The translations under genes and the position numbers were made by a program. A stretch of 64,000 bases of DNA from a virus (Duplodnaviria; Caudoviricetes), in the IMG/VR virus record IMGVR_UViG_3300037067_026422; one strand, written 5' to 3'. The notes beneath the pieces were generated by a model that was not told the origin of the DNA, did no database searches, and saw only the letters and a program-made list of their open reading frames with translations. Shown here in pieces: positions 2,218 through 64,000 of the stretch (positions within the stretch are counted from its first letter, which is position 1; each line of letters starts with the position of its first letter).

Positions 2218-3036
2218 ATGAATTATAAAGATATAAGTTTCAAAAAAGCTGAAGTGGTACAAAATTCTACCACCTACAATCGGGAAATGAGAAAATCATT
2301 AATTGATAAGATATTCTTTCTTGATAAGGTTGGAGATTCTTCTGTATTTATTGATTATGGATGTGCAGATGGATCCGTCCTTAAACTCGCTTCATCTATT
2401 ATTCCGGAGGCTTCCTACATTGGATATGATATATCTGAAGAGATGCTTGGCATAGCCATAAAATCCTGTGATTCTACTATACAATTCACAAATGATTTAG
2501 ATCTTCTGGGACGGCTGATCAGTGAGCAAAAGAAAAAAGGAAACAAAATCTGTATAAGTCTTCTGAGTCTCATACATGAAGTATATGCCTATGGTCCTGA
2601 TAGTGTCAAAAAATTTTGGGGATTTGTATTCAATACAGATTTGTTTGATTACATAGCCATACGAGATATGTGTGTGGCTAAAACAACAAGCCGTCCCTCG
2701 GATCCTATAAGTGTGGCTAAAATCAGGATGTTATATGATAAAAATATGCTATCGCAATGGGAATCAACTTGGGGCTCTTTAAATGAAAACTGGAGCTTGA
2801 CGCATTTTCTGCTGACTTATCAGTATGTTGATTCTTGGGATAGAGAACTTCATGAAAATTATCTACCACTTTGTCTGGAAGATCTTATGGCGCTGATTCC
2901 AAACGGATGGAAGCCAACATATCTTGAACATTATACCCTACCCTTTGTTCGGCAGAAAGTCTATGAGGATTTTGGTATGGATTTGCAAGACAGAACACAT
3001 GTTAAGATTATCTTAGAAAGATATGCTGGTAAGTAA
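2218..3036 (+). CDS. Class I SAM-dependent methyltransferase
   Basis: Motif I FIDYGCADG and motif II IGYDIS. Confidence 0.75.
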   Translation: MNYKDISFKKAEVVQNSTTYNREMRKSLIDKIFFLDKVGDSSVFIDYGCADGSVLKLASSIIPEASYIGYDISEEMLGIAIKSCDSTIQFTNDLDLLGRLISEQKKKGNKICISLLSLIHEVYAYGPDSVKKFWGFVFNTDLFDYIAIRDMCVAKTTSRPSDPISVAKIRMLYDKNMLSQWESTWGSLNENWSLTHFLLTYQYVDSWDRELHENYLPLCLEDLMALIPNGWKPTYLEHYTLPFVRQKVYEDFGMDLQDRTHVKIILERYAGK

Positions 3037-3085
3037 TACTTACGAAGTTAAATTTGCGTAACCTTAATGAATTAGTAACTATTGT

Positions 3086-3343
3086 ATGAACCAAGCCATT
3101 ATTAGAATAGGTTATGAAAATAGCAGTAGTGGTAGCAGAAGCTGTAGCAGTAGCAGTAGCAGGAGTGGTAGCTGGAGCAGGAGTGGTAGCAGTAGCTGGA
3201 GCAGTAGCTGGAGCAGGAGCTGTAGCTGGAGTGGTAGCAGTAGCGGTAGCTATAGCATTAGTGGTAGCAGTAGCTATAGCAGGAGCAGGAGCAGGAGTGG
3301 TAGCAGGAGTAGTAGCTATAGCTATAGCGGTGATAGCAAATAA
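3086..3343 (+). CDS. Ser/Arg/Gly/Trp-rich micro-protein, MNQAIIRIGY family, copy 1
   Basis: 10-aa leader is shared with the copies at 61357-61657; low-complexity core built from AGY codons. Confidence 0.65.
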   Translation: MNQAIIRIGYENSSSGSRSCSSSSSRSGSWSRSGSSSWSSSWSRSCSWSGSSSGSYSISGSSSYSRSRSRSGSRSSSYSYSGDSK

Positions 3344-3430
3344 ATCTTTATGAAAAAGCACAAGCATAAATTTAATAAAAATAGATAATATTAAATACTT
3401 AATCCACAAACCTTTTAAAAAGGAATACAT

Positions 3431-4180
3431 ATGCCAAAATTAATGGGTAAAGATGAGCATCAAACTCATCAAACGTTACATGGATTTCAGTTCAGTGCAG
3501 CAAAAGTCGAAACTTTAGGAGCATCCGATTACACAATCGTGACCGTTGTACAGGATAAATCTGGGTCGGTTTCTTCTTTCTCCACAGACATGGAAGCCAC
3601 ACTTCAGAAAATCATCGAAGCTTGTCAAAAAAGCCCTAGGTCTCAAAACCTTCTCATACGCCTTGTCACCTTCAATGATGATGTCCAGGAGGTACACGGT
3701 TTTGTAGAACTCAATAACATCAATGCAGGTCAATACTCCGGTGTCCTGGACAAATGTTATGGATCAACTGCCCTCAATGATGCATCCCTGAATAGTGCCG
3801 AAGCTATCGAAGCTTATGGGCAACAGCTGTCCAGTATGGATTTTAGAAGTAATGCCGTCATGTTTGTCATCACTGATGGACAGGACAATGTATCCGTAGT
3901 CGCCAGAGACCCAGCTGTTCTAAAAAAAGCGTTCAAGAAGATCAAAACCAGTGAAATTGTTGAGTCTTTCCAAACTGTTCTTGTCGGAGTGGGTACCGAC
4001 CCGAACATTATCAGTGATCTCAAAAAATTTAAAGATGATGCAGGATTTGATCAATTCGTGGAGATGGGTGCTGCGACCCCCTCCAAATTAGCAAAGTTGG
4101 CGGATTTCATCAGCAAAAGTATTAGTTCGACCAGTCAGGCTCTTGGAACCGGTCAACCTTCACAACCTCTTACTTTCTAA
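3431..4180 (+). CDS. vWA domain protein (TerY-like)
   Basis: MIDAS motif DKSGS, GSTAL and VITDG. Confidence 0.85.
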   Translation: MPKLMGKDEHQTHQTLHGFQFSAAKVETLGASDYTIVTVVQDKSGSVSSFSTDMEATLQKIIEACQKSPRSQNLLIRLVTFNDDVQEVHGFVELNNINAGQYSGVLDKCYGSTALNDASLNSAEAIEAYGQQLSSMDFRSNAVMFVITDGQDNVSVVARDPAVLKKAFKKIKTSEIVESFQTVLVGVGTDPNIISDLKKFKDDAGFDQFVEMGAATPSKLAKLADFISKSISSTSQALGTGQPSQPLTF

Positions 4181-53729: not shown

Positions 53730-54860
53730 TTAGTTTTCTTCCATAATCCTCTTCAACCGATCCGACCCTACTACAGAATCAGGAAGAATATTAAAGGTAG
53801 GACGAACTCTTCGGTGTATCCCCAACCATAGCTTGTTAAAATTCTTCTTATAATAATAAATCAACTCTCCAGCCAACTTTCCATAACGATCCTGCGCCGT
53901 CAGAAAAAAAGTTTTATGATCAACTTCTGCTGGCAGAATTTTCATCAATTCTTCATAGGTATCTTTCACCTTATTAAAAGGGTCATGGTGGAGGTCATAG
54001 ATTTGATGATATAAAGTATTCGTCATCTCACGAAACTCCTCCGGGATCCCCATCAAAAAATCTTTAGGGATATCCATTGCTTCTAAATCCCAAGCACCCC
54101 AAAATGCCAAAGGAGTCATATGGGACAATATCCGATGAATCTTACAATATTCATCCCCTTTGACTTTTATTTTAAAACCATTATGAAACGTTACTACAAA
54201 ACCTTCTTCAGTACATGGAAGCTTTTTGCAGTACTCATAGAGCTCATCAAGATCCCGAAACTCCACTGCCTCAACCACCGTAGCTCCGATTCTCTCTCCT
54301 TCGATTTTCATAGAAGCATAGGGCATTTCATTTCCAGTAGTGTTCTCGATGATCCCAAGCAAAACCATATCTTCACGATCTCCGTAATCTACCACAATCT
54401 TATTTTCTGGATAGATGATTTCAAAAAGATAAGAGTATCCTGGCAATATTTCCTGGTGTTTTATATGCTCCCGAAACCACTTTGTAGCCCATGCTGCCTG
54501 TTCTGATTCAAAAGACCCTTTAGTGGCTACATGCCATTGATTTTTGTATTTGAATAATAACCCAAGCGAGCCATCAATCTTGGTAAGCGTCAAGAAAGGT
54601 TTTCTGGCAAGCTCATAAAGATTGATCTTGCCCACAAGCTCAGATGCATTATGAAATTTTTGAAAAGGACGGCAAAGTACCTCTCCAGTAACTTTATTAA
54701 AAATGATTCCCCGGGCAGCACGGGTGACTTCATCCCAAAGACCCTCGTATTGACACTCTCTGGAATAGCAAAACAAAACAAGATCTTCCCATTCCTTGTG
54801 GGTGACCTGGGGATGCTCATAAAATTCTTTCAACAAAGGTAATGTAGTCATTTTGTCCAA
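53730..54860 (-). CDS. T4 Rnl1-like RNA ligase
   Basis: ARGIIF, PFQKF, motif I KIDGSL, EIIYPENKIVVDY, EGFVV and KVKGDEY. Confidence 0.9.
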   Translation of the reverse strand: MDKMTTLPLLKEFYEHPQVTHKEWEDLVLFCYSRECQYEGLWDEVTRAARGIIFNKVTGEVLCRPFQKFHNASELVGKINLYELARKPFLTLTKIDGSLGLLFKYKNQWHVATKGSFESEQAAWATKWFREHIKHQEILPGYSYLFEIIYPENKIVVDYGDREDMVLLGIIENTTGNEMPYASMKIEGERIGATVVEAVEFRDLDELYEYCKKLPCTEEGFVVTFHNGFKIKVKGDEYCKIHRILSHMTPLAFWGAWDLEAMDIPKDFLMGIPEEFREMTNTLYHQIYDLHHDPFNKVKDTYEELMKILPAEVDHKTFFLTAQDRYGKLAGELIYYYKKNFNKLWLGIHRRVRPTFNILPDSVVGSDRLKRIMEEN

Positions 54861-55602: not shown

Positions 55603-55881
55603 CTATCTCTTCTTCTTTTTCTTCATGCATACTCCAAAACTTCCTCTGCCCCTGACCCACTTTATCCATTTCTGGACTGCCGGATGAACACGGAGCTTAT
55701 CCATAGTATTATACAGATCCCGAAGCTCATTATTCGAAAAAAGCTGGTGGATCTGATCCCCGCAATCAATGCATACAATTTCAGCATTTTTACCCCCCTT
55801 TGCTGCTGGCACCAGATGATGCTTTTCCATATAGGATTTATGTGGGACATTTCTTCCACATAATGAGCACCTATCACCCAT
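55603..55881 (-). CDS. Small HNH-type (Zn) nuclease-like protein
   Basis: CSLCGR, HHLVP and VCIDC..QIH. Confidence 0.7.
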   Translation of the reverse strand: MGDRCSLCGRNVPHKSYMEKHHLVPAAKGGKNAEIVCIDCGDQIHQLFSNNELRDLYNTMDKLRVHPAVQKWIKWVRGRGSFGVCMKKKKKR

Positions 55882-55939: not shown

Positions 55940-56476
55940 TTATTCAGAGAAAAGAAATTTCTTCAAGTTTTCAGAATGCTTAAATACAAAAGGGTCTGCA
56001 TAGAACATCTCTGTTTGTATGCTCCTATAAAGGTATAGATTTACCTTAAGAGTATAGAAATTCTCTGTATAGCGGATATTTTTCAAAATGACCTTTTTTA
56101 GCTCTGCTGATTTACTCTTATTCAAGGCAATCAAAGTGTCCCTCGTCCAACTGATTGTATGCTCATCTCGAAGCCTCTTAAAAATACTGATGAACAACAA
56201 CTTTTCAGATTTTGATATGACATCCTCAGGGCTATACATATTGGAGAATAAATACAGGAACCATCTGTATGTCCCGCATATAAGATCAGGGGGAATATAA
56301 TCAGGAGTATTATCATCCAGACTACAATGTAGTTTGGTTTTTGATAACTCTATAAGCATTATAATTTTATCCTGCTTAGTCACTACCACAACCTTTAGGT
56401 TTATATATACCCTTTTCCCGTACCACTTTATCATAGTAATAAACAGGAGGAACTCCCTGAACTTCCATACCATCAT
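55940..56476 (-). CDS. Hypothetical protein
   Basis: ORF in the array; true start probably near 56359. Confidence 0.45.
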   Translation of the reverse strand: MMVWKFREFLLFITMIKWYGKRVYINLKVVVVTKQDKIIMLIELSKTKLHCSLDDNTPDYIPPDLICGTYRWFLYLFSNMYSPEDVISKSEKLLFISIFKRLRDEHTISWTRDTLIALNKSKSAELKKVILKNIRYTENFYTLKVNLYLYRSIQTEMFYADPFVFKHSENLKKFLFSE

Positions 56477-57257
56477 CTTTGGCGATTACCCTGTAATCTG
56501 GATTGTATTCATTTTTGGCGATGTCCCCAACAATCTTCATATCCTCAAAACAAGCTAAGATTTTTCCGCCGAGAGTATGTCCCCCTATTAGTATAGTCTT
56601 ATATCCCTTACAACAAGTACAAAGATCCCCAAATTTCTTATACTCGAAATCTACAAAATTCCAATCCTCGATATCATAGGTACGTGCTTCTGTATTATCT
56701 TTACCCCGGTCATACCCCTTGAAATCCTGTACTTTAAAATCTATCCCACGAACCTTCCATATCCGTTTATGATCTCTTACAATTTTTCGTTCTCCAGGGA
56801 AGAGCAGCTCTTTCACATATACGTTGATACCATTTTCATGCAGATATAAGACATTATCCTCATACTTTTTCACGAGTTCAGGGATATGCCCTATCATTCT
56901 ACGGTGAAAAGTAAAACCTACCCGATGTATTCTATCTTTATATGGTAGAATCCGGGCATAATTCTCACGCTTTTGAAGACCATTAGTCAAAAAATCAAAA
57001 TGTTCAAGTGAGGTAGATCTTATCACAGTACAGATAGTATTAATATTGGTATCCATGAATGGTTCGCCACCATGGAAATGCATCCTGATATCCTCTGCAT
57101 CACCCAAATGAGTAATACGAAAAATATTATATTGATCTATCGTGAAAGATTGATGCTTGGTATAGTTGGAAATAAAACGCTCATAATGAAAACAATAACT
57201 GCATCGAAGATTACACTCAAAAGGGATAGGATAGGCTATATAGTATTTCATGATCAT
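56376..57257 (-). CDS. Radical SAM protein
   Basis: CNLRCSYC, GGEP and TNG; C-terminal Cys residues. Confidence 0.88.
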   Translation of the reverse strand: MIMKYYIAYPIPFECNLRCSYCFHYERFISNYTKHQSFTIDQYNIFRITHLGDAEDIRMHFHGGEPFMDTNINTICTVIRSTSLEHFDFLTNGLQKRENYARILPYKDRIHRVGFTFHRRMIGHIPELVKKYEDNVLYLHENGINVYVKELLFPGERKIVRDHKRIWKVRGIDFKVQDFKGYDRGKDNTEARTYDIEDWNFVDFEYKKFGDLCTCCKGYKTILIGGHTLGGKILACFEDMKIVGDIAKNEYNPDYRVIAKDDGMEVQGVPPVYYYDKVVREKGIYKPKGCGSD

Positions 57258-57298
57258 TTATTTCCATATTTTTTCTTATATAAGAAAAATTCCTGCCT

Positions 57299-58591
57299 CT
57301 AATCCATTTCAAAACTGGTTATATCCAGGTCATCTTTCCAGGGTAACAACTGCGCTCTATTTTTTTGACGTTTCAGTACCCTTAATGATCTGAGACAAGT
57401 CTGTCGTATGCCTTCAGTGGTAGTCTTAAGATTTTCACCTATCTCCGATAACGTTTTAATTCTACCATCATCAAGTCCATACCTCATTAATATCGCTTGT
57501 CGCTCTTTTACACGAAGGGTACTCAGCAGTATATTTATCTTATCACGCAAAGCTTCAAAAGACAACCTATCTAATGTATTCTCAACGGATATGTCTTCAA
57601 TAAGATCACTCAAGGTAGAATCACTCTCAAGAGTTGTTTCCATGTCCAAATATACCATGTTTATAGAACACTCATAAGCTTTCAGGACTTTATCTACTGA
57701 TATACCTATTCCAGAAGCTATCTCTTCGATTGATGGATTTCTACCATGTGTACTGCGGTAAGAATTTATATAATGATCCATATGATGCATAATCCCAGCA
57801 ATATTAGTAGGAATTCTGATCGTTCTTGATCTTTCATTTAGTGCCCGGGTAATAGACTGCTTCACCCACCATGTAGCATATGTACTGAATTTATATCCTT
57901 TTTTATAATCAAAGTTTTCAGCAGCTTTTATAAGCCCACGATTACCTTCCTGAATAAGATCTGCTATTTCCATTCCATTGTTTTGATAACGTTTGGATAT
58001 GGTAACAACTAATCTAATATTAGCTTCTATGAGTTTGGATCTGGCAGTATTGTACAAATTTTCAGAATCATATAAAAAATCAAGCCCTTCAACATTTCCA
58101 ACTCGGATAAGCCCCTTTTTATGTATACTCAGAATATCGCTTACCCAGCTATTGTTAAAGTGTATCAATCGACAAAGACCCACGTAATTATCTTCAGCAT
58201 CTCTTATGAAAGATGCAAATTTTTCACTCTTCTTTTTAGGGAGCTGCTTACGTAAAGAAATAAGCTTGTCTTGCTCGGAGATTATTAAATGAATACGGTC
58301 TATGAATTCTTTTTGCTGCTGGCCTACCTCAGAAGATGTCCCATCTACCCGAACAATATCCCTAAAACTAATCTTACCCTCATTTATTTTTTCAAGAATA
58401 TTTGTAAAGATATTAAAGGTAAGTGGATCTCTAAAAGCCTTATCCAACATCTCCAGCTGAGCATAGCGCATTAAAATCGCTTGCTGAGCCTCCTCTCCCT
58501 TATTTATAAGGGAATACTTTTTAAGGCCATTTAAGTATATCTGGGTAGAATTATTACTGTCTATTTTTAGGCTCTTATGGTATAAATTCAT
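57299..58591 (-). CDS. RpoD-like sigma70 factor
   Basis: [22 protein letters not shown]...FD...[17 protein letters not shown] and region 4 TLSEIG. Confidence 0.92.
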
Positions 58592-58621
58592 AGCTCACTA
58601 TAAATCTACATTTTACACCAT

Positions 58622-59260
58622 TTACCCACAAGAAGCAATATTAAAATCATTTAAAGAAATAAGATAATTTTCTTTATTCCCTGTTCTGATGTATCTAATA
58701 ATAGACTCAGTACCTACCACTACAGCTAACAGGGCTATATTTCGAGCAAGAGGATACTCACAAACATCAAGACCTGTAGATTTACTTGGAACCCGATATC
58801 GTTCATTCCAGGTTACTTCTGCACAATCCTGTGCCAAACCAATATGCAGACAATCAATTTTATTGTCTCGACAGTAATCAGTCACGATTTTTCGGCTTTC
58901 AGAATTATCAAACCCATCTACTACAATAGTTCCGGGTTTTAACAGCTTCTTTACATTGGCTGCAGTAAGCTCCTGGGAGATTGAATCAATAGATATCTTC
59001 ATGGCAAAAAACAGATAATTTTTAAGTGCTGCGGTTTTGAGTTGACCCACATCCCGACTGGTCCATATCTGATTGTTCCGATTATGATCAGCCACACGAT
59101 CCATGTCAATCACCGTGAGCTTCTGAAAACCCTGCCTGACCAGATTATTGGCAAGATTTGAACCTATAGCTCCGACACCACACAACGTAATGGGTTGTGC
59201 TGCAAGTTTTTTCAGAAGATCCACCCCACGGTAGACCTCTTCATGTACAAAAGTTTTCAT
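58622..59260 (-). CDS. ThiF/E1-like adenylyltransferase
   Basis: CGVGAIGS, IDMDRV...N.N.Q, DVGQLK and VDGFDN. Confidence 0.88.
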   Translation of the reverse strand: MKTFVHEEVYRGVDLLKKLAAQPITLCGVGAIGSNLANNLVRQGFQKLTVIDMDRVADHNRNNQIWTSRDVGQLKTAALKNYLFFAMKISIDSISQELTAANVKKLLKPGTIVVDGFDNSESRKIVTDYCRDNKIDCLHIGLAQDCAEVTWNERYRVPSKSTGLDVCEYPLARNIALLAVVVGTESIIRYIRTGNKENYLISLNDFNIASCG

Positions 59261-59460
59261 AGATTCTCTTCAATCATTTTTTTTGTCTGTTCTTGCTCTG
59301 AATAAAGCATAAGAGAACACAAGTTAAAATCTTCTTTTTGTCTGTTCATTGAAGCATCAAACCAGCTACACTGACCTACATGATAACCTATCGTATCTAA
59401 GGTCATTTTAGGTCCTCCAGATTTCAATTGTACAACATCACCTTGCTTTAAATCTGACAT
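59257..59460 (-). CDS. YodC/DUF2158-like small protein
   Basis: GDVVQLKSGGPKMT..C.WF. Confidence 0.75.
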   Translation of the reverse strand: MSDLKQGDVVQLKSGGPKMTLDTIGYHVGQCSWFDASMNRQKEDFNLCSLMLYSEQEQTKKMIEENL

Positions 59461-59595
59461 AAAACCTTTTCCTTCAAAGTTATACAAGCTTAACTTCATA
59501 TGGTTGATAACGGGCACCGTAGAGTCCCGTAAGAAATCGAGTCAATATATTCCTATCTCCCCAATATACTATTTTATAATGAGAGATGTAAAATT

Positions 59596-59970
59596 TTACT
59601 GCTTATCCCAAGATATTCTTACCCAGTAATATGTCGGTTGCTCTTCAGTAGTTTCTTCTCTTACGGGAGTATGACTCGTTATTTCGGTAGTATATCCATT
59701 ACTCTCTACCGCTTTAGCAACAACCATTGCCTGGCAGAGAGCATACTCATCCGAGTCCTCACAAGAATAAAGTACCCTATTCTCTTTGTTAAGGATAGCT
59801 TTTTTAATATTTTCTTCTATGCCCTTTAAAGTTACTGACAAGCGTTTTTCTAACCTTTCCTTATATCCTTCCATGTATTCTTTATGGGCCCTTTCCCTTT
59901 TAGCACTCTCGATGTCTTGTTCGTTTTGAGCTAATTTTGCAAGAACATTCGCTTCTTTAGCTGATAGCAT
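59596..59970 (-). CDS. Hypothetical protein
   Basis: GGAGG RBS before the ATG at 59970. Confidence 0.6.
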   Translation of the reverse strand: MLSAKEANVLAKLAQNEQDIESAKRERAHKEYMEGYKERLEKRLSVTLKGIEENIKKAILNKENRVLYSCEDSDEYALCQAMVVAKAVESNGYTTEITSHTPVREETTEEQPTYYWVRISWDKQ

Positions 59971-59984
59971 AAAAACCTCCACAT

Positions 59985-60019
59985 AATAAAAGAGGGACCC
60001 CTTTACCCGGAGGCCCCTC
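59985..60019 (-). terminator. Rho-independent terminator
   Basis: GAGGGGCCTC-CGGGTAAA-GGGGTCCCTC followed by TTTTATT on the minus strand. Confidence 0.7.
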
Positions 60020-60065
60020 AAGTAAATTATCTTTGCAGAGGCATACGCCCCTACTGTGATAGTTT

Positions 60066-60229
60066 AATGATCAAGAATCAATAACCATCGCCACTTATAA
60101 TAATTCTCCCCCTCTACCGACTGAGGTACAGACCCTCTTAATCCTTTTGTGGTAAGGACTTAGAGGGTCTGAGCGGAATTGAACCGCTGACCGGAGTTTG
60201 CTATGGCTCCCTATCAATTTTTGATCATT
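60066..60229 (-). ncRNA. Circularly permuted tRNA-mimic RNA B (YrlA-like architecture)
   Basis: Minus strand reads CTCC-GGTC-AGCGG TTCAATT CCGCT-CAGACCC-[29-nt hairpin linker]-GGGTCTG-TA-CCTC AGTCGGTA GAGG-G-GGAG; the flanks pair (AATGATCAA/TTGATCATT). Confidence 0.8.
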
Positions 60230-60306
60230 CTCATGTTTTGAGTCTGGGACAATCAAAACACTAACACAAAATTTTAAACTGGTACGCAAAAAGATAAAAA
60301 TAAGAT

Positions 60307-60419
60307 CTTTTGTTTATACTCTAAATGCTCTCCCAATCTGAGCTACAATCCCCATATATTTTATAGGGGGGAAAGGAGGGAATCGAACCCCCGACCTTTA
60401 GTTATTAGCATAACAAAAG
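60307..60419 (-). ncRNA. Circularly permuted tRNA-mimic RNA A (YrlA-like architecture)
   Basis: Minus strand reads CTAAA-GGTC-GGGGG TTCGATT CCCTC-CTTTCCC-[16-nt linker]-GGGATTG-TA-GCTC AGATTGGGA GAGC-A-TTTAG; the flanks pair (CTTTTGTT-ATGCT/AGTAT-AACAAAAG). Confidence 0.78.
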
Positions 60420-60443
60420 CTTTTTAAAGTAATAACTCAGGAC

Positions 60444-61214
60444 TTACTTTACTGTAAACCCTTCGTTAATATAATTGAAAAATGTTTGTCCAACTTTAAC
60501 TGCTTCAACTTCCTGTGCATTTGCTCTCGCTCGAGCAATCTTTACTCCTGCAATCAAACGATCGATACGATTAAGAATCTGACTCTTCTGCTTTGGTGAT
60601 AATGCTCCGCATGCAAAAGTTGAGGTCCAGGTACCGACTGGCTCATCACTCTGAACAATTTCTGTCTGAGCCTGAAATTTATCTGTAGCCTCAGCCTTTG
60701 TAATTACAATGGGGGTTTTCTTTGTCCGCACACGTTCAATTGGAGCTGACTTCCAAATCCCTACCTTTGTGGGATCAAGAGTCCAGACTTTTGCCGGATC
60801 AAGTGTCGGAATTTCCCCATAAACCTTTCGGATGCGCTCCAACACGGATTCCATCTGCACCAGGAATGTTACGGGGGCATTCTCAAGAATGGTCTGTGTG
60901 GTACCATCCGGAAGCTCCACTATAATGTCAGCTCTGGCATTTTGATTCGCCCGTTCCTTCTGGATCTCAATATCCATAAACCGAACAATATGCTCCTGTG
61001 CATAATCAAGCTTATCCTGAACAGTCGTGACCATCGGGGTAAATTCTTCATCGGGGCGGTCCTTATCCTCTTCACGAAAAGGACTATAGCTTTTTCTAGA
61101 TTCCAGAAAATGAGCTGAACGTTGATTAAATGTTTTTGAAGTCTCTTCAAGAATCTTAGCAAAAACATCCTTGGCTTCTTTTTCCACGGCTAAAAGCTCA
61201 TGAAGTAATCCCAT
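60444..61214 (-). CDS. Uncharacterised 256-aa protein directly upstream of the tRNA-mimic RNAs
   Basis: GGGGG RBS-like stretch; helical N- and C-terminal regions with a central RTKK beta-hairpin-like segment; no Ro60/TROVE or vWA features. Confidence 0.8.
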   Translation of the reverse strand: MGLLHELLAVEKEAKDVFAKILEETSKTFNQRSAHFLESRKSYSPFREEDKDRPDEEFTPMVTTVQDKLDYAQEHIVRFMDIEIQKERANQNARADIIVELPDGTTQTILENAPVTFLVQMESVLERIRKVYGEIPTLDPAKVWTLDPTKVGIWKSAPIERVRTKKTPIVITKAEATDKFQAQTEIVQSDEPVGTWTSTFACGALSPKQKSQILNRIDRLIAGVKIARARANAQEVEAVKVGQTFFNYINEGFTVK

Positions 61215-61223
61215 AAAACCCCC

Positions 61224-61355
61224 CTATATATAAGATGATATCCAATAGATATCTATTAATATATATAGGGCAACAAAGTATAGGCAAATATAAAATATTT
61301 TATTTTTATCACTTCCACTTCTATCATGCCCTACTTTAAGGATGACTTGATTTAT
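61224..61355 (-). pseudogene. Degenerate MNQAI-family copy (ATA in place of ATG)
   Basis: INQVILKVGHDRSGS aligns to the family leader, with the same stop-T-start spacing. Confidence 0.5.
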
Positions 61356-61356
61356 A

Positions 61357-61461
61357 CTATAAATTCCTGCTACCCCTACAGCTCCTGCTACTGCTATGCC
61401 TCCTGCTCCTGCTACAGCTACTGCTACTATCATAACCTATTCTAATAATGGCTTGATTCAT
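61357..61461 (-). CDS. Ser/Arg-rich micro-protein, MNQAI family (34 aa)
   Basis: MNQAIIRIGYDSSSSCSRSRRHSSSRSCRGSRNL; leader identical to copy 1. Confidence 0.65.
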   Translation of the reverse strand: MNQAIIRIGYDSSSSCSRSRRHSSSRSCRGSRNL

Positions 61462-61462
61462 A

Positions 61463-61657
61463 TTATTTACTACAGCTCCCACTCTCACTCCTACTTTTGC
61501 TACAGCCCCAGCTCCTGCTCCAGCTACTGCTTCGGCTACCGATCCTGCTACCACTACTACTAACCCTACGGCTACAACCTCTACTCCAACTCCTGCTATA
61601 GCTACCACTCCCGCCACAGCTACTATTATAACTTACTCTAAGTATGGCTTGATTCAT
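61463..61657 (-). CDS. Ser/Arg-rich micro-protein, MNQAI family (64 aa)
   Basis: MNQAILRVSY leader followed by an S/R/G/C/W core. Confidence 0.65.
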   Translation of the reverse strand: MNQAILRVSYNSSCGGSGSYSRSWSRGCSRRVSSSGSRIGSRSSSWSRSWGCSKSRSESGSCSK

Positions 61658-61685
61658 ATAGAAATTATGTCTCTTTTTAAATTAT

Positions 61686-61943
61686 CTATACATTTGGCAA
61701 AAATTCAACTATCTCTGTATCCGTATCAATCACACAAGTACAATCTTTTATGGCAGGATCACTTATTAGTCCTATTGTAATAATATCATGTCTCAGTCTC
61801 TCTAATTTAGAACTTATGTCCTCTACAGGAATAACAATTCTATTCATGTCTACATCTTCACAAATAGATCCATTTAAAGCCTTAAGCACCTCATTATAAT
61901 CACGAATGAGTTTTTTTCTCAAAACATTGAAATCTACTTCCAT
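61686..61943 (-). CDS. Hypothetical protein
   Basis: TAATG coupling to the upstream gene. Confidence 0.55.
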   Translation of the reverse strand: MEVDFNVLRKKLIRDYNEVLKALNGSICEDVDMNRIVIPVEDISSKLERLRHDIITIGLISDPAIKDCTCVIDTDTEIVEFLPNV

Positions 61944-62269
61944 TATTTATCCGTTTTTCCAGGCAACTTTTTATTCATATTAACTATCTCTACTGATATT
62001 GACTTTACTTTCTTACCTCGTATCATTACAGGTATTTTCTTTTTAAGTTCACTCATTTCTATAAGAACAGTCTGACGACCAATATATATAGCTTTCTCGG
62101 TATCAAACTCAATAATAACACGCAAAAGCTTTCTAACCTCTGGCTTTCGTTTCTTTTGAGATTCCATTACATAATCATGCAATTCATGAAATTCCGAGGC
62201 AGAAAAATATGGTGTACCCGGAGCTATCAATCTTTTTACTAATTCTTTAAATCGATTATCCATGATCAA
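61943..62269 (-). CDS. Hypothetical protein
   Basis: ORF in the co-directional array. Confidence 0.5.
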   Translation of the reverse strand: MIMDNRFKELVKRLIAPGTPYFSASEFHELHDYVMESQKKRKPEVRKLLRVIIEFDTEKAIYIGRQTVLIEMSELKKKIPVMIRGKKVKSISVEIVNMNKKLPGKTDK

Positions 62270-62281
62270 TCCTTAATAAGA

Positions 62282-62372
62282 GGGGAGCCGATAGGACGCT
62301 CCAACTCTGTGCTCTATCAAAAATAGAACGCATGGGCACTGCTTCCGCTACATGCACGCCTACCAGCTTCCC
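62282..62372 (-). ncRNA. Candidate structured ncRNA of unknown family
   Basis: 14-position closing stem GGGAAGCTGGTAGG/CCTATCGGCTCCCC enclosing two hairpins; GC-rich within an AT-rich intergenic region. Confidence 0.45.
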
Positions 62373-62438
62373 ATTATCTAAAAAATTTTGCTGTTTTAGA
62401 AGTATAAAAAAGTTTTCTATCAAACTCTTTACTTAAAA

Positions 62439-62855
62439 TTATAGGGTAATACCAATAAAGAAAGATCCAAAAAATTTAATATTAACCTTTATTTTCTTAA
62501 CAATCGTGGTTTTTTCTTTATTTATCCCCCCGACATAATAGCAATAGCAGGATGATCGACTACCACACCTTATACCACAAAGATACGCTTTGTACATAGC
62601 CTTTACCCAAGATCTCATTGTAGCATTGTCAATAGCACTCGCCACTATGTTCCTCGTCCCAGGATGTGTATGATACCACCCAATAACCTTTGGATTAATA
62701 GCTTGGGAATAATCCATCTCTACAGAAGTTGCTGCCCCCATGGTATGATACTTCTGATATCCAATAAAAGCTAATCTCTTATCGTATAGATATATTCGGA
62801 TACCATATAGGAACCAACACTCTTCTTTAAATTTCATATCCACTAAATTTTGCAT
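62439..62855 (-). CDS. JAB/MPN+ metallopeptidase domain protein
   Basis: E...GWYHTHP......S..D (JAMM motif). Confidence 0.75.
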   Translation of the reverse strand: MQNLVDMKFKEECWFLYGIRIYLYDKRLAFIGYQKYHTMGAATSVEMDYSQAINPKVIGWYHTHPGTRNIVASAIDNATMRSWVKAMYKAYLCGIRCGSRSSCYCYYVGGINKEKTTIVKKIKVNIKFFGSFFIGITL

Positions 62856-63010
62856 CCGTCAGATGTGCGTGGCACCTCTGGTTTCTTATAAAGGTTATGG
62901 CTACACTTGTTGCGCACACGAACTGCCCTCGACCCAACCGCCAGTGATAATACTAATGGGGCTAATCTGCCCATAGGAACATTAAATATCAACCAAAATA
63001 AAAAATTTTC

Positions 63011-63211
63011 TTAACATTGAGGATTTCTCCTATAATATTCCTTGTTTAAATTATGACAAGCTAAAGCTACATCTTCGAACTTTCCTTTATATCTTATAGT
63101 TTTAGTTTCAGTATCAAATACATTCCACTGCTGCTTTTGAATCCTCTGTTTTTGAAAACGACGGTCTTTAAATTCGGGCATTTCTACATGTTCAGTTATT
63201 ATCTCAATCAT
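63011..63211 (-). CDS. Hypothetical protein
   Basis: ORF in the co-directional array. Confidence 0.5.
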   Translation of the reverse strand: MIEIITEHVEMPEFKDRRFQKQRIQKQQWNVFDTETKTIRYKGKFEDVALACHNLNKEYYRRNPQC

Positions 63212-63286
63212 GTTTCTACCTATTTGAGAGCCGCAGAGTTCACACCAAAATCAACTATGCTTTAAATAATCAACCTATAGCTCATG

Positions 63287-63535
63287 CTATTCATCCAGCT
63301 TTAAATATCTCTTATCTACACCTTTTAGTATGAGAAAATCAAAAAGTTCTTTGACAGTCTTGATTGATTCAAACTCTTCATCTTCAAGCTCGACAGCATA
63401 AGCACCTTCAATCTCTATGACAGCACCCAAGAAATCCAAGGAATCAAATACAAGATCCTCTATTTTTGAATCCTCTTTAATCTGACTTCTGTTTACTGCT
63501 AAATAAAAATCGATCACATCAAGAATATCTTTCAT
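63287..63535 (-). CDS. Acyl carrier protein-like
   Basis: Acidic 82-aa protein with DSLD phosphopantetheine site and IKTVKEL. Confidence 0.75.
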   Translation of the reverse strand: MKDILDVIDFYLAVNRSQIKEDSKIEDLVFDSLDFLGAVIEIEGAYAVELEDEEFESIKTVKELFDFLILKGVDKRYLKLDE

Positions 63536-63639
63536 ACTTTTATTTATCCTTTATTATTTTTTATATCTTAAAAAAGCTATCTACGCTTCCGTGGCCTTTC
63601 CCGCCCCACAGGATCGTAAGTAACCTTTGTTACCTGGAT

Positions 63640-63999
63640 TCAATGAACATTAAATCGATGTACGACCCCTTTTCGTCGAGCCTCACGCACCACCGTAATA
63701 AGACTCTTGAGATCAAATCTGTGGTCATTACCTGCTAAGCAAATCCCCGCTGCTATCACATTATGCTGATTATCCTTAGAGATATGACTGGTGAACTCTT
63801 CCCCATCTACCCTATAGGTCACACTGTAATGATCACTACGTTCAGTAAAACGAACAAAGCTTCCACCCGCATGCTCAACATCACTTTTAATAATAAGCTC
63901 CTTACGATCTTCCAGAAAACGCTTATCAAAAGATGTCCGAAGAGTATAAGATAGCTTTTCCTCAAAAGTGAGATTTGGATATTTGATTTTTTGAGAATC
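63640..63999 (-). CDS. Hypothetical protein with an AGICL motif, C-terminal part, truncated by window edge
   Basis: Frame is open to the edge: ...VEHAGGSFVRFTERSDHYSVTYRVDGEEFTS...AAGICLAGNDHRFDLKSL. Confidence 0.65.
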   Translation of the reverse strand, partial: DSQKIKYPNLTFEEKLSYTLRTSFDKRFLEDRKELIIKSDVEHAGGSFVRFTERSDHYSVTYRVDGEEFTSHISKDNQHNVIAAGICLAGNDHRFDLKSLITVVREARRKGVVHRFNVH

Positions 64000-64000
64000 T

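Follow-up and report, generated by a model that had tools for sequence, protein, structure and literature searches.

Ser-X repeat micro-proteins arrayed in a huge phage belong to a widespread family commonly encoded beside a predicted Sm-like protein

The array of micro-protein genes

The subject of this analysis is a tandem array of very small genes located at positions 61224-61657 of a 64,000-nucleotide stretch of DNA from a huge phage (Duplodnaviria; Caudoviricetes; IMG/VR record IMGVR_UViG_3300037067_026422). This whole stretch is referred to below as the window. The array comprises two intact minus-strand open reading frames (ORFs) and a 5' remnant of a third, devoid of both start codon and core, and is flanked by a gene for an 85-residue protein (61686-61943) and by a DUF7873 gene (60444-61214). 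A further copy is located 58 kb from the array, on the opposite strand. The four copies are as follows:

61463-61657, minus strand: unit 1, an intact micro-protein gene assigned by family membership, 64 amino acids (aa); ATG at 61657, stop TAA at 61463-61465
61357-61461, minus strand: unit 2, an intact micro-protein gene, 34 aa; ATG at 61461, stop TAG at 61357-61359
61311-61355, minus strand: unit 3, the 5' remnant of a third gene, of another subfamily; ATA at 61355 in place of ATG, core deleted
3086-3343, plus strand: fourth copy, intact and dispersed, identified by its match to the leader pattern, 85 aa; MNQAIIRIGYEN followed by about 36 Ser-X pairs

The intact copies consist of a conserved N-terminal head, termed the leader in the original prediction, followed by a core in which Ser alternates with a variable residue, X, and which ends at the stop codon of the head's own frame (frame 0). 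Thus, unit 1 reads MNQAILRVSYNSSCGGSGSYSRSWSRG...SCSK, with the head MNQAILRVSYN preceding about 26 Ser-X pairs, and unit 2 reads MNQAIIRIGYDSSSSCSRSRRHSSSRSCRGSRNL, with the head MNQAIIRIGYD and a short Ser-X core. Reading of the minus strand confirms the original prediction that MNQAILRVSY (at 61657) and MNQAIIRIGY (at 61461) are joined as TAA-T-ATG, the start of unit 2 being 1 nucleotide (nt) past the stop of unit 1. The net charges computed from sequence are +10 for unit 1 and +6 for unit 2. Cys accounts for 4 of 64 residues in unit 1 and 2 of 34 in unit 2; Trp accounts for 3 of 64 in unit 1 and is absent from unit 2. Tandem Repeats Finder shows the cores to repeat with periods of 6, 12, and 18 nt, and the single-sequence AlphaFold 2 (AF2) model of unit 1 has no confident fold (mean predicted local distance difference test score, pLDDT, 54.7).

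A degenerate third copy had also been predicted, and the TAG-T-ATA join, with a single T between units 2 and 3, and the leader that follows it are indeed present. Unit 3 reads INQVILKVGHDRSGS, after which its frame continues into the AT-rich promoter region of the next gene. The start codon and nearly the whole repeat core are lost, R-S-G-S being all that is left of the Ser-X pattern. The head features V4, H10, and DRSGS are closest to those of unit 1 in a relative of this phage (L009/L030; MNQVILRIGHDKSGS). Judged by this resemblance, unit 3 is a dead 5' stub of a different head subfamily and not, as might have been supposed, a decayed copy of unit 2.

A search of the window with the 24-nt leader pattern, allowing up to 3 mismatches, returned these four sites against 0.00 expected from 100 shuffles. 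Differences among the four leaders are mostly synonymous or conservative, as had been claimed: there are 4 synonymous changes (AAT/AAC; ATT/ATA/ATC; GGT/GGG), and the replacements are I/L, R/K, I/V, G/S, A/V, and Y/H. The array is real: here a family of small protein-coding phage genes has been amplified in tandem, two of the genes being intact and one surviving as a 5' remnant.

The dispersed copy is situated between a methyltransferase-like gene (2218-3036) and a gene for a vWA-domain protein (3431-4180). The strand antisense to it is open for 140 aa (3008-3430), which, given the composition, is probably due to chance.

A widespread family of Ser-X micro-proteins

The suggestion that the leader be sought across this genome and in other phages proved productive. 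Besides the fourth copy in the window, about 135 relatives were found in about 100 phage contigs and in one GenBank phage (MW202573). The family head is 11 residues long, with the consensus MN[QA]AIL[RK]xG[FYW][DE], and is followed by (Ser-X)n, in which X is mostly Arg, Trp, or Gly. The tail comprises about 10-50 Ser-X dipeptides in strict alternation and is variable in length and sequence. The head pattern MN[QA]AI[LIM][RK]xG[FYW][DE] is present at the start codon of units 1 and 2 and of the copy at 3086, and in unit 3 with ATA in the place of the start codon. In an alignment of units 1 and 2 and the copy at 3086 with 26 relatives, M1, N2, Q3, and I5 are invariant. At 34 aa, unit 2 is within the family range of about 20-117 aa.

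Two types can be distinguished by the codons used for Ser. A scan of metagenome contigs for a leader followed by four alternating AGY codons returned 86 loci, 55 of which encode 78 peptides with the same head and (Ser-X)n, in arrays of up to five to seven units. The other type, in which Ser is TCG, TCA, or TCT, was first met in the DNA of two relatives from a profile search and in MW202573; a second pattern scan then yielded 54 TCN-type peptides in 47 IMG/VR viral contigs. The profile search, run against 1.84 billion representative proteins, gave 43 matches. Word-based protein searches with the frame-0 ORFs and with those of the +1 frame gave one real relative, P0001 (MNQVILRIGHDKSGSRSVSWSRS...), and one chance match, and two strict leader patterns matched nothing real in IMG/VR. 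Scans of prokaryote genomes returned only about 6 real matches, all on contigs of metagenome-assembled genomes (MAGs) from varied phyla; for this reason, no host can be inferred. The loci of the TCN-type comparison span 36-64% GC.

Cores are composed of Ser (44-47%), Arg (15-16%), Gly (12-14%), and Trp (12%). The original description of the core as Ser/Cys-rich holds for Ser but not for Cys, which is a minor component (1% family-wide). The peptides match no Pfam, NCBIfam, or PHROG family, and our literature search found no paper on them; the family is thus both widespread and undescribed. Gene callers often miss the peptide gene or misread its frame, as in P0025 and P0030.

In the huge phage studied here, the family has been multiplied and dispersed to sites that have no adjacent gene for the Sm-like protein described below. 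Another huge phage contig, IMGVR_UViG_3300037067_027616 (466,729 bp), carries five tandem TCN-type units in one segment (L131, 161-1300) and at least one more in another (L143), and therefore amplification in huge phages happened more than once.

Several variants of the basic design were observed. P0003 (127 aa) is a family member fused C-terminally to a CxxC...CxxC zinc ribbon, and in MW202573 the gene that follows the peptide (L100, 2897-3238) is annotated as a zinc finger domain protein; a zinc-ribbon or zinc finger protein may be a third component in some phages. In L009 (5201-5401; the same contig as L030 from 7428 onward), unit 2 contains TGA, in frame, at a position occupied by TGG in relatives, and Ser-X pairs carry on past it. 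This could be a nonsense allele, a case of read-through, or an assembly error. Ser makes up 77% of a variant core in L107 (1428-1724, minus strand), which has long stretches of poly-Ser as well as SWSP repeats, and therefore the X position can collapse to Ser.

The translated frame

Because the core hexamers have the form AGY-NGN, both frame 0 and the +1 frame are open in the window. The ORFs of the +1 frame are Gly/Ala/Val-rich and are judged to be by-products; they are located as follows:

61357-61617, minus strand: Gly/Ala/Val-rich ORF in the +1 frame
61224-61433, minus strand: Gly/Ala/Val-rich ORF in the +1 frame
3114-3353, plus strand: Gly/Ala/Val-rich ORF in the +1 frame

Comparison of lineages indicates that frame 0, the frame of the leader, is the one selected and translated. 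Five lines of evidence point in this direction. First, leader codons vary synonymously across the family: Ala is GCA, GCG, GCC, or GCT; Gly uses all four GGN codons; Leu is TTA, CTA, TTG, or CTN; and Arg is AGA, CGA, CGG, or CGT, so that both codon families of each of the latter two are represented. This family-wide pattern agrees with the proposal of peptide-level selection on a fixed leader with a variable core, and leader conservation in homologues respects the reading frame, as that proposal demands. Second, Ser is encoded by AGY in some lineages and by TCN in others, which alters the other frames. For each of the six Ser codons there is some array in which it accounts for the majority of Ser, and arrays are internally homogeneous, the major Ser codon having a mean share of 0.86 within an array against 0.42 expected. 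Third, of 81 AGY-type cores, 45 have a closed +1 frame, among them the closest relatives of the window's copies (L030, L067, and L070). In TCN lineages this frame reads (Arg-Gly)n or a His/Gly/Gln-rich sequence, and in the P0001 contig it is cut by TGA and TAA, while the start of the gene overlaps the stop of a JAB-domain gene via ATGA. No +1 reading frame is conserved across the relatives. Fourth, the periodicity of AGY drops at the frame-0 stop, from 0.40 to 0.12, in the 68 testable ORFs, the only exceptions being those in which the next unit starts at once. Fifth, insertions and deletions between the closest pairs are multiples of 6 nt.

It should be noted that part of the evidence from the window itself initially pointed the other way. 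The +1 frame is open in all three window copies, with equivalently placed ATG codons in two of them, and a test of synonymous codon usage against 42 long window ORFs first favored it, with z scores of +2.6, +1.6, and +1.1 compared with -3.7, -2.5, and -1.7 for frame 0. According to this alternative, the real products in this phage would be hydrophobic Gly/Ala/Val peptides, their translation beginning at internal starts or shifting into the +1 frame past the head. However, the +1 frame is closed in the majority of AGY-type cores noted above and encodes another peptide where Ser is TCN, and on these grounds +1-frame peptides were ruled out as products. The +1 ATG results incidentally from the conserved [YH][DE] codons (xAT GAx), and an open +1 frame would arise by chance with an estimated p of about 0.09, the window cores containing only three codons with T at position 2. 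Programmed +1 frameshifting after the head was rejected as well: the sequence lacks a slippery site, and nothing requires the +1 frame. We therefore give next to no credence to this alternative.

A further view, that the repeat is a non-coding hexamer variable-number tandem repeat or decaying junk without a product, appears hardly more credible. Low-complexity sequence, rapid gain and loss of units, weak ribosome-binding sites at two window copies, and the clearly dead unit 3 are what such a view would predict. It does not, however, account for a head conserved at the amino acid level in front of every array, in about 135 cases from very different genomes, nor for a repeat that always ends at the frame-0 stop, nor for starts that overlap stops.

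A predicted Sm-like protein is the recurrent neighbor

Clustering of the ORFs that flank the AGY-type loci revealed a sole recurrent neighbor, a protein of 90-130 aa encoded directly upstream of the peptide and characterized by the motifs IGKNYLIRTVT, AAWIADTGR, EVEP, IGRGAIIDA, and LPxEQK. It is this partner that the examination of gene neighborhoods, advocated in the original prediction, brought to light. For counting, the neighbor was identified by a profile built from the partner itself, and 104 loci were considered, 88 of which have an upstream ORF within reach. The upstream ORF matches the profile in 64 of these 88. At 36 of the 64 junctions the peptide start overlaps the partner stop, and at a further 23 the two are within 15 nt of each other. 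No conservation across loci was found among the genes downstream of the peptides. An Sm-like gene immediately upstream is thus typical of the family without being universal, and the window's copies are among those that lack it.

The partner matches no Pfam (including LSM and Hfq), PHROG, or NCBIfam family, and no link to DUF6948 emerged from these sequence comparisons. Its AF2 model (mean pLDDT 89.4) consists of an N-terminal helix followed by a strongly bent five-stranded beta-barrel. The top Foldseek matches of this model are all LSm/Sm proteins (probability 1.0, E about 3e-3). With VIA, the model gave a Z of 9.1 and a root-mean-square deviation of 2.1 A over 67 residues, nearly all of the top 30 rows being Sm, LSm, or kin, and it superposes on solved Sm, LSm, and Hfq chains. 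These models suggest that the partner has an Sm/LSm fold and is probably RNA-binding.

At 90% identity the partner family falls into at least 6,202 clusters, every one of them "hypothetical" or unnamed and without a Pfam domain. Its contexts are phage genomes with large terminase, DnaB, and helicase genes. The two-gene cassette is located in early modules for replication or recombination, beside RecT-like and RecE-like genes, NinB, DnaB, helicase, methyltransferase, or repressor genes; in the complete phage MW202573 it comes just after the repressor switch, with both genes annotated as hypothetical. In cellular genomes the cassette is rare and confined to MAG contigs. Sm-like proteins that have 'ET[EK]RW' accompany heads that end in E-[LGA]-W, and those that have 'D[TS]GR[FL]' accompany G-[FY]-[DE] heads. 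On the face of the sequences, this pairing of variants may reflect either co-variation at a contact site or only shared ancestry.

Genes around the array and the precursor-peptide hypothesis

The region of the window that surrounds the array contains the following features:

53730-54860, minus strand: T4 Rnl1-type RNA ligase (PF09511, E 8e-23)
55603-55881: HNH endonuclease, adjoining the RNA ligase gene
56376-59517, minus strand: cluster of DUF2158, ThiF/E1-like, sigma-70-like factor, and radical SAM genes
56376-57257, minus strand: radical SAM protein (within the cluster)
58622-59260, minus strand: ThiF (within the cluster)
60444-61214, minus strand: DUF7873 protein (Pfam E 3e-71)
61681-61708, minus strand: weak sigma-70-like promoter candidate, TTGAAT-16-GATAAT, about 20 nt upstream of the unit 1 ATG
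62439-62855, minus strand: JAB/MPN-like protein with the motif HxH...S..D
63287-63535, minus strand: acyl carrier protein

The RNA ligase adds to the RNA-repair flavor of the region. Sigma-70-like matches are no more numerous here than expected from shuffles, and the match at 61681-61708 is listed as a candidate only. An AT-rich imperfect inverted repeat with 23-nt arms, 74% complementary, is present at 61220-61270, just ahead of the DUF7873 start; upstream of the DUF7873 homologue in the relative L001 (2935-2960) there is a comparable 'agatatc...' motif, and the repeat may be an operator or promoter element. The gap of about 420 nt after the DUF7873 gene (60022-60443), which had been called a tRNA mimic, has no ARAGORN or Rfam match, and no tRNA genes or Rfam elements were found in the window.

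The original prediction drew attention to the ThiF and radical SAM genes 2-5 kb from the array and proposed that the peptides are precursors of ribosomally synthesized and post-translationally modified peptides (RiPPs). The head would then be a leader recognized by a maturase (ThiF/E1-like, radical SAM, or other), and the Ser/Cys-rich core would be dehydrated, cyclized, epimerized, or phosphorylated before removal of the leader. The general design, a conserved N-terminal segment with a hypervariable Ser-rich core in multi-copy tandem arrays, is compatible with this proposal, and in the relative L070 a six-unit array directly precedes ThiF. Nevertheless, the proposal is not supported, because no modifying enzyme is co-conserved across the roughly 100 loci, where only the Sm-like protein is, and because the position of the array relative to ThiF and radical SAM shifts even among close relatives. 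Thus, in L030 the peptide genes come directly after the JAB gene. In L070, which retains ThiF and radical SAM at about 70% identity, peptide genes also precede the 85-aa gene, and in L001 there is no array at the syntenic site, an SPFH-like gene being found there instead. Since array positions differ among close relatives, the closeness of arrays to ThiF and radical SAM is a lineage-specific and shifting feature, seen only among close kin.

Other observations concur. The radical SAM protein matches its core region weakly, far below family cut-offs, and has no SPASM match. A scan of parts of the window (49.9-64 kb and the flanks of the copy at 3086) turned up no YcaO, SPASM, or lanthipeptide enzyme. 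The peptides match no NCBIfam or Pfam precursor family at E<=1, no Gly-Gly-type cleavage motif is visible in the head alignment, and Cys is scarce in the cores. We consider a RiPP role very unlikely. The ThiF, DUF2158, sigma factor, radical SAM, JAB, and acyl carrier protein genes could form a ubiquitin-like conjugation or cofactor pathway unrelated to the peptides.

A 210-kb IMG/VR relative encodes a DUF7873 protein at 78% identity, and a query with positions 59000-64000 of the window found no similar DNA in deposited phages.

Proposed role of the cassette

The peptides are, in our opinion, most likely disordered cationic nucleic-acid-binding partners of the Sm-like protein. Among the alternatives mentioned in the original prediction, a nucleic-acid binder resembling SR proteins or protamines is accordingly the one that fits best. 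The peptide would be docked on the Sm-like protein by its 11-residue head, and its tail, disordered, cationic, and bearing Trp, would add multivalent contacts with RNA (or DNA). Such action of the tail in trans would parallel what Arg-Gly and Arg-Ser tails do in cis in eukaryotic Sm, LSm, and SR proteins. The tail itself lengthens and shortens by whole 6-nt units. We regard this specific scheme of head docking and tail contacts as evenly balanced between being right and being wrong.

A more ambitious version can be formulated. The two-gene cassette might be a ribonucleoprotein device of a new kind, in which a docking peptide would equip an Sm-like ring with an arm in trans, and rapid changes of tail length by 6-nt slippage would tune RNA binding or the formation of condensates. 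Huge phages would then amplify the peptide genes as a repertoire of arms, possibly against RNA-targeting defenses of the host. We advance this version as a speculation that is more likely to fail than to hold by a wide measure.

Several observations weigh against the role proposed here. About a quarter of the loci have no Sm-like gene upstream, and hmmsearch with the partner profile found no such gene in the window. The fold in itself is no proof of RNA binding, the top Foldseek matches including the peptide-binding LSm domains of LSM14 and EDC3. The Shine-Dalgarno motif is weak or absent at the starts of unit 1 and of the copy at 3086. Finally, codon usage in the cores is peculiar to a degree that could signify a role at the level of codons or RNA. 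Gly is GGG in 81-90% of core cases, compared with 19% in flanking genes, and AGG makes up 83% of AGR codons in cores, compared with 38% in flanking genes; the resulting excess of NGG among X codons is far beyond what amino acid selection alone would produce.

The occurrence of copies without an adjacent Sm-like gene, both in the window and in relatives, together with the many paralogues in this phage lineage, would be more easily understood if the peptides were stand-alone Arg/Trp-rich effectors independent of the Sm-like protein. Such effectors might act on membranes in the manner of (RW)n antimicrobial peptides, might serve in exclusion or lysis, or might form Trp-Arg-ladder beta-sheets, for strict alternation in an Arg/Trp-rich chain would put all X side chains on one face of a beta-strand. 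On the other hand, the tight coupling to the Sm-like gene at 59 of 64 junctions argues for joint action, and the cassette is found in early or replication modules and not in lysis modules. The window copies are also poor in Trp, as the counts for units 1 and 2 given above illustrate, and AF2 gives no confident fold. An independent effector is, on balance, an unlikely explanation, although of those that compete with nucleic-acid binding beside the Sm-like protein it is the one we would take most seriously.

The codon bias raises a different alternative, in which the function resides in the mRNA or in its translation, the peptide being secondary. The repeat could be a sponge or sensor for rare NGG/AGY/TCN decoding, or an RNA element rich in G, with GG recurring at 6-nt intervals, to which the Sm-like protein binds. 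X codons are almost always NGG, with TGG, AGG, CGG, and GGG about equally frequent; the first position is therefore near-equally T, A, C, or G, and the synonymous third position is under more constraint than the non-synonymous second. Compared with flanking genes, the bias is significant at a Fisher p of about 1e-160 for Gly and about 1e-71 for Arg. The translational sensor, also among the original suggestions, thus retains some support from the NGG codons. Against it, Ser is kept while its codons switch between AGY and TCN, which alters the RNA sequence, and the head is conserved at the amino acid level. A Shine-Dalgarno-like (GGAGYN)n array and an Hfq A-R-N motif were considered as causes of the bias and rejected: the GGAG motif is absent from TCN lineages, and the bias stays. 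It also persists where the +1 frame is closed. The explanation we prefer is concerted evolution of the hexamer units, in which Trp, encoded only by TGG, fixes G at codon position 3. Arrays occasionally fix other codons, and the copies of this phage have GGT in most of their Gly codons (13/17), which is more readily reconciled with concerted evolution than with a required NGG. A function in the RNA or its decoding is accordingly judged quite unlikely, and nucleic-acid binding by the peptide in partnership with the Sm-like protein remains the reading we favor.

The correct frame and the two-gene unit together supply a rule with which abundant phage "dark matter" of this kind can be annotated. 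The cassette suggests that bacteriophages, too, pair the Sm fold with an Arg-rich repeat tail, a combination best known from eukaryotic RNA-processing proteins. Four or more copies within 64 kb, beside RNA-repair genes, mark the family as something in which this huge phage invests. On the methodological side, two overlapping open frames in a hexamer repeat can be separated by setting lineages with one family of Ser codons against lineages with the other. What this analysis adds is the choice of frame, the recognition of two lineages by their Ser codons, the pattern of concerted evolution, and the test of the RiPP hypothesis across loci. The cassette is small enough for direct testing.

Comparison with known systems

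The strict Ser-X alternation brings to mind the Ser-Asp repeats of the staphylococcal Clf/Sdr proteins. Weak compositional matches to two of the relatives (L086 and L067) were obtained, with E values of 1e-3 to 1e-2, far below cut-offs, and there was no match to the window's own peptides. The staphylococcal repeats are acidic and glycosylated and form part of large wall-anchored proteins; they are not homologous to the phage peptides.

Multi-precursor RiPP loci include those of microcin B17 and other thiazole/oxazole-modified microcins, the heterocycloanthracins, and loci of the cyanobactin and prochlorosin types. Precursor arrays of this kind share with the phage family a conserved N-terminal segment and a hypervariable core containing Ser, Gly, and Cys, and they are sometimes tandem. 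The phage family differs in having no co-conserved maturase, protease, or exporter and no match to a precursor family.

The nearest literature on the partner concerns phage T4, in which the small early proteins GoF, MotB.1, and Frd.2 have been predicted to have an LSm-like fold and proposed to act on RNA (PMC12152347). The likeness to the partner is one of description only, and the abstract of that paper mentions no Ser-X peptide partner (PMC12152347).

The peptides themselves resemble the RS domains of SR splicing proteins and protamine-like peptides in their alternation of Arg and Ser, their cationic and disordered character, and repeats that are prone to slippage. Unlike SR proteins and protamines, they have no RNA recognition motif and no linked kinase, are free-standing products of 20-117 aa, and contain Trp and Gly as frequently as Arg.

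A parallel to the cassette as a whole is found among eukaryotic Sm and LSm proteins with Arg-Gly tails. In the phage, the repeat is a separate, translationally coupled gene with a head of its own, and it consists of Ser-X with Trp, Gly, and Arg. What SmD1, SmD3, SmB, and LSm4 have in common with it is the association of an Sm fold with a low-complexity, Arg-rich dipeptide repeat, and in these four proteins the Arg-Gly tails help the binding of RNA or of partner proteins.

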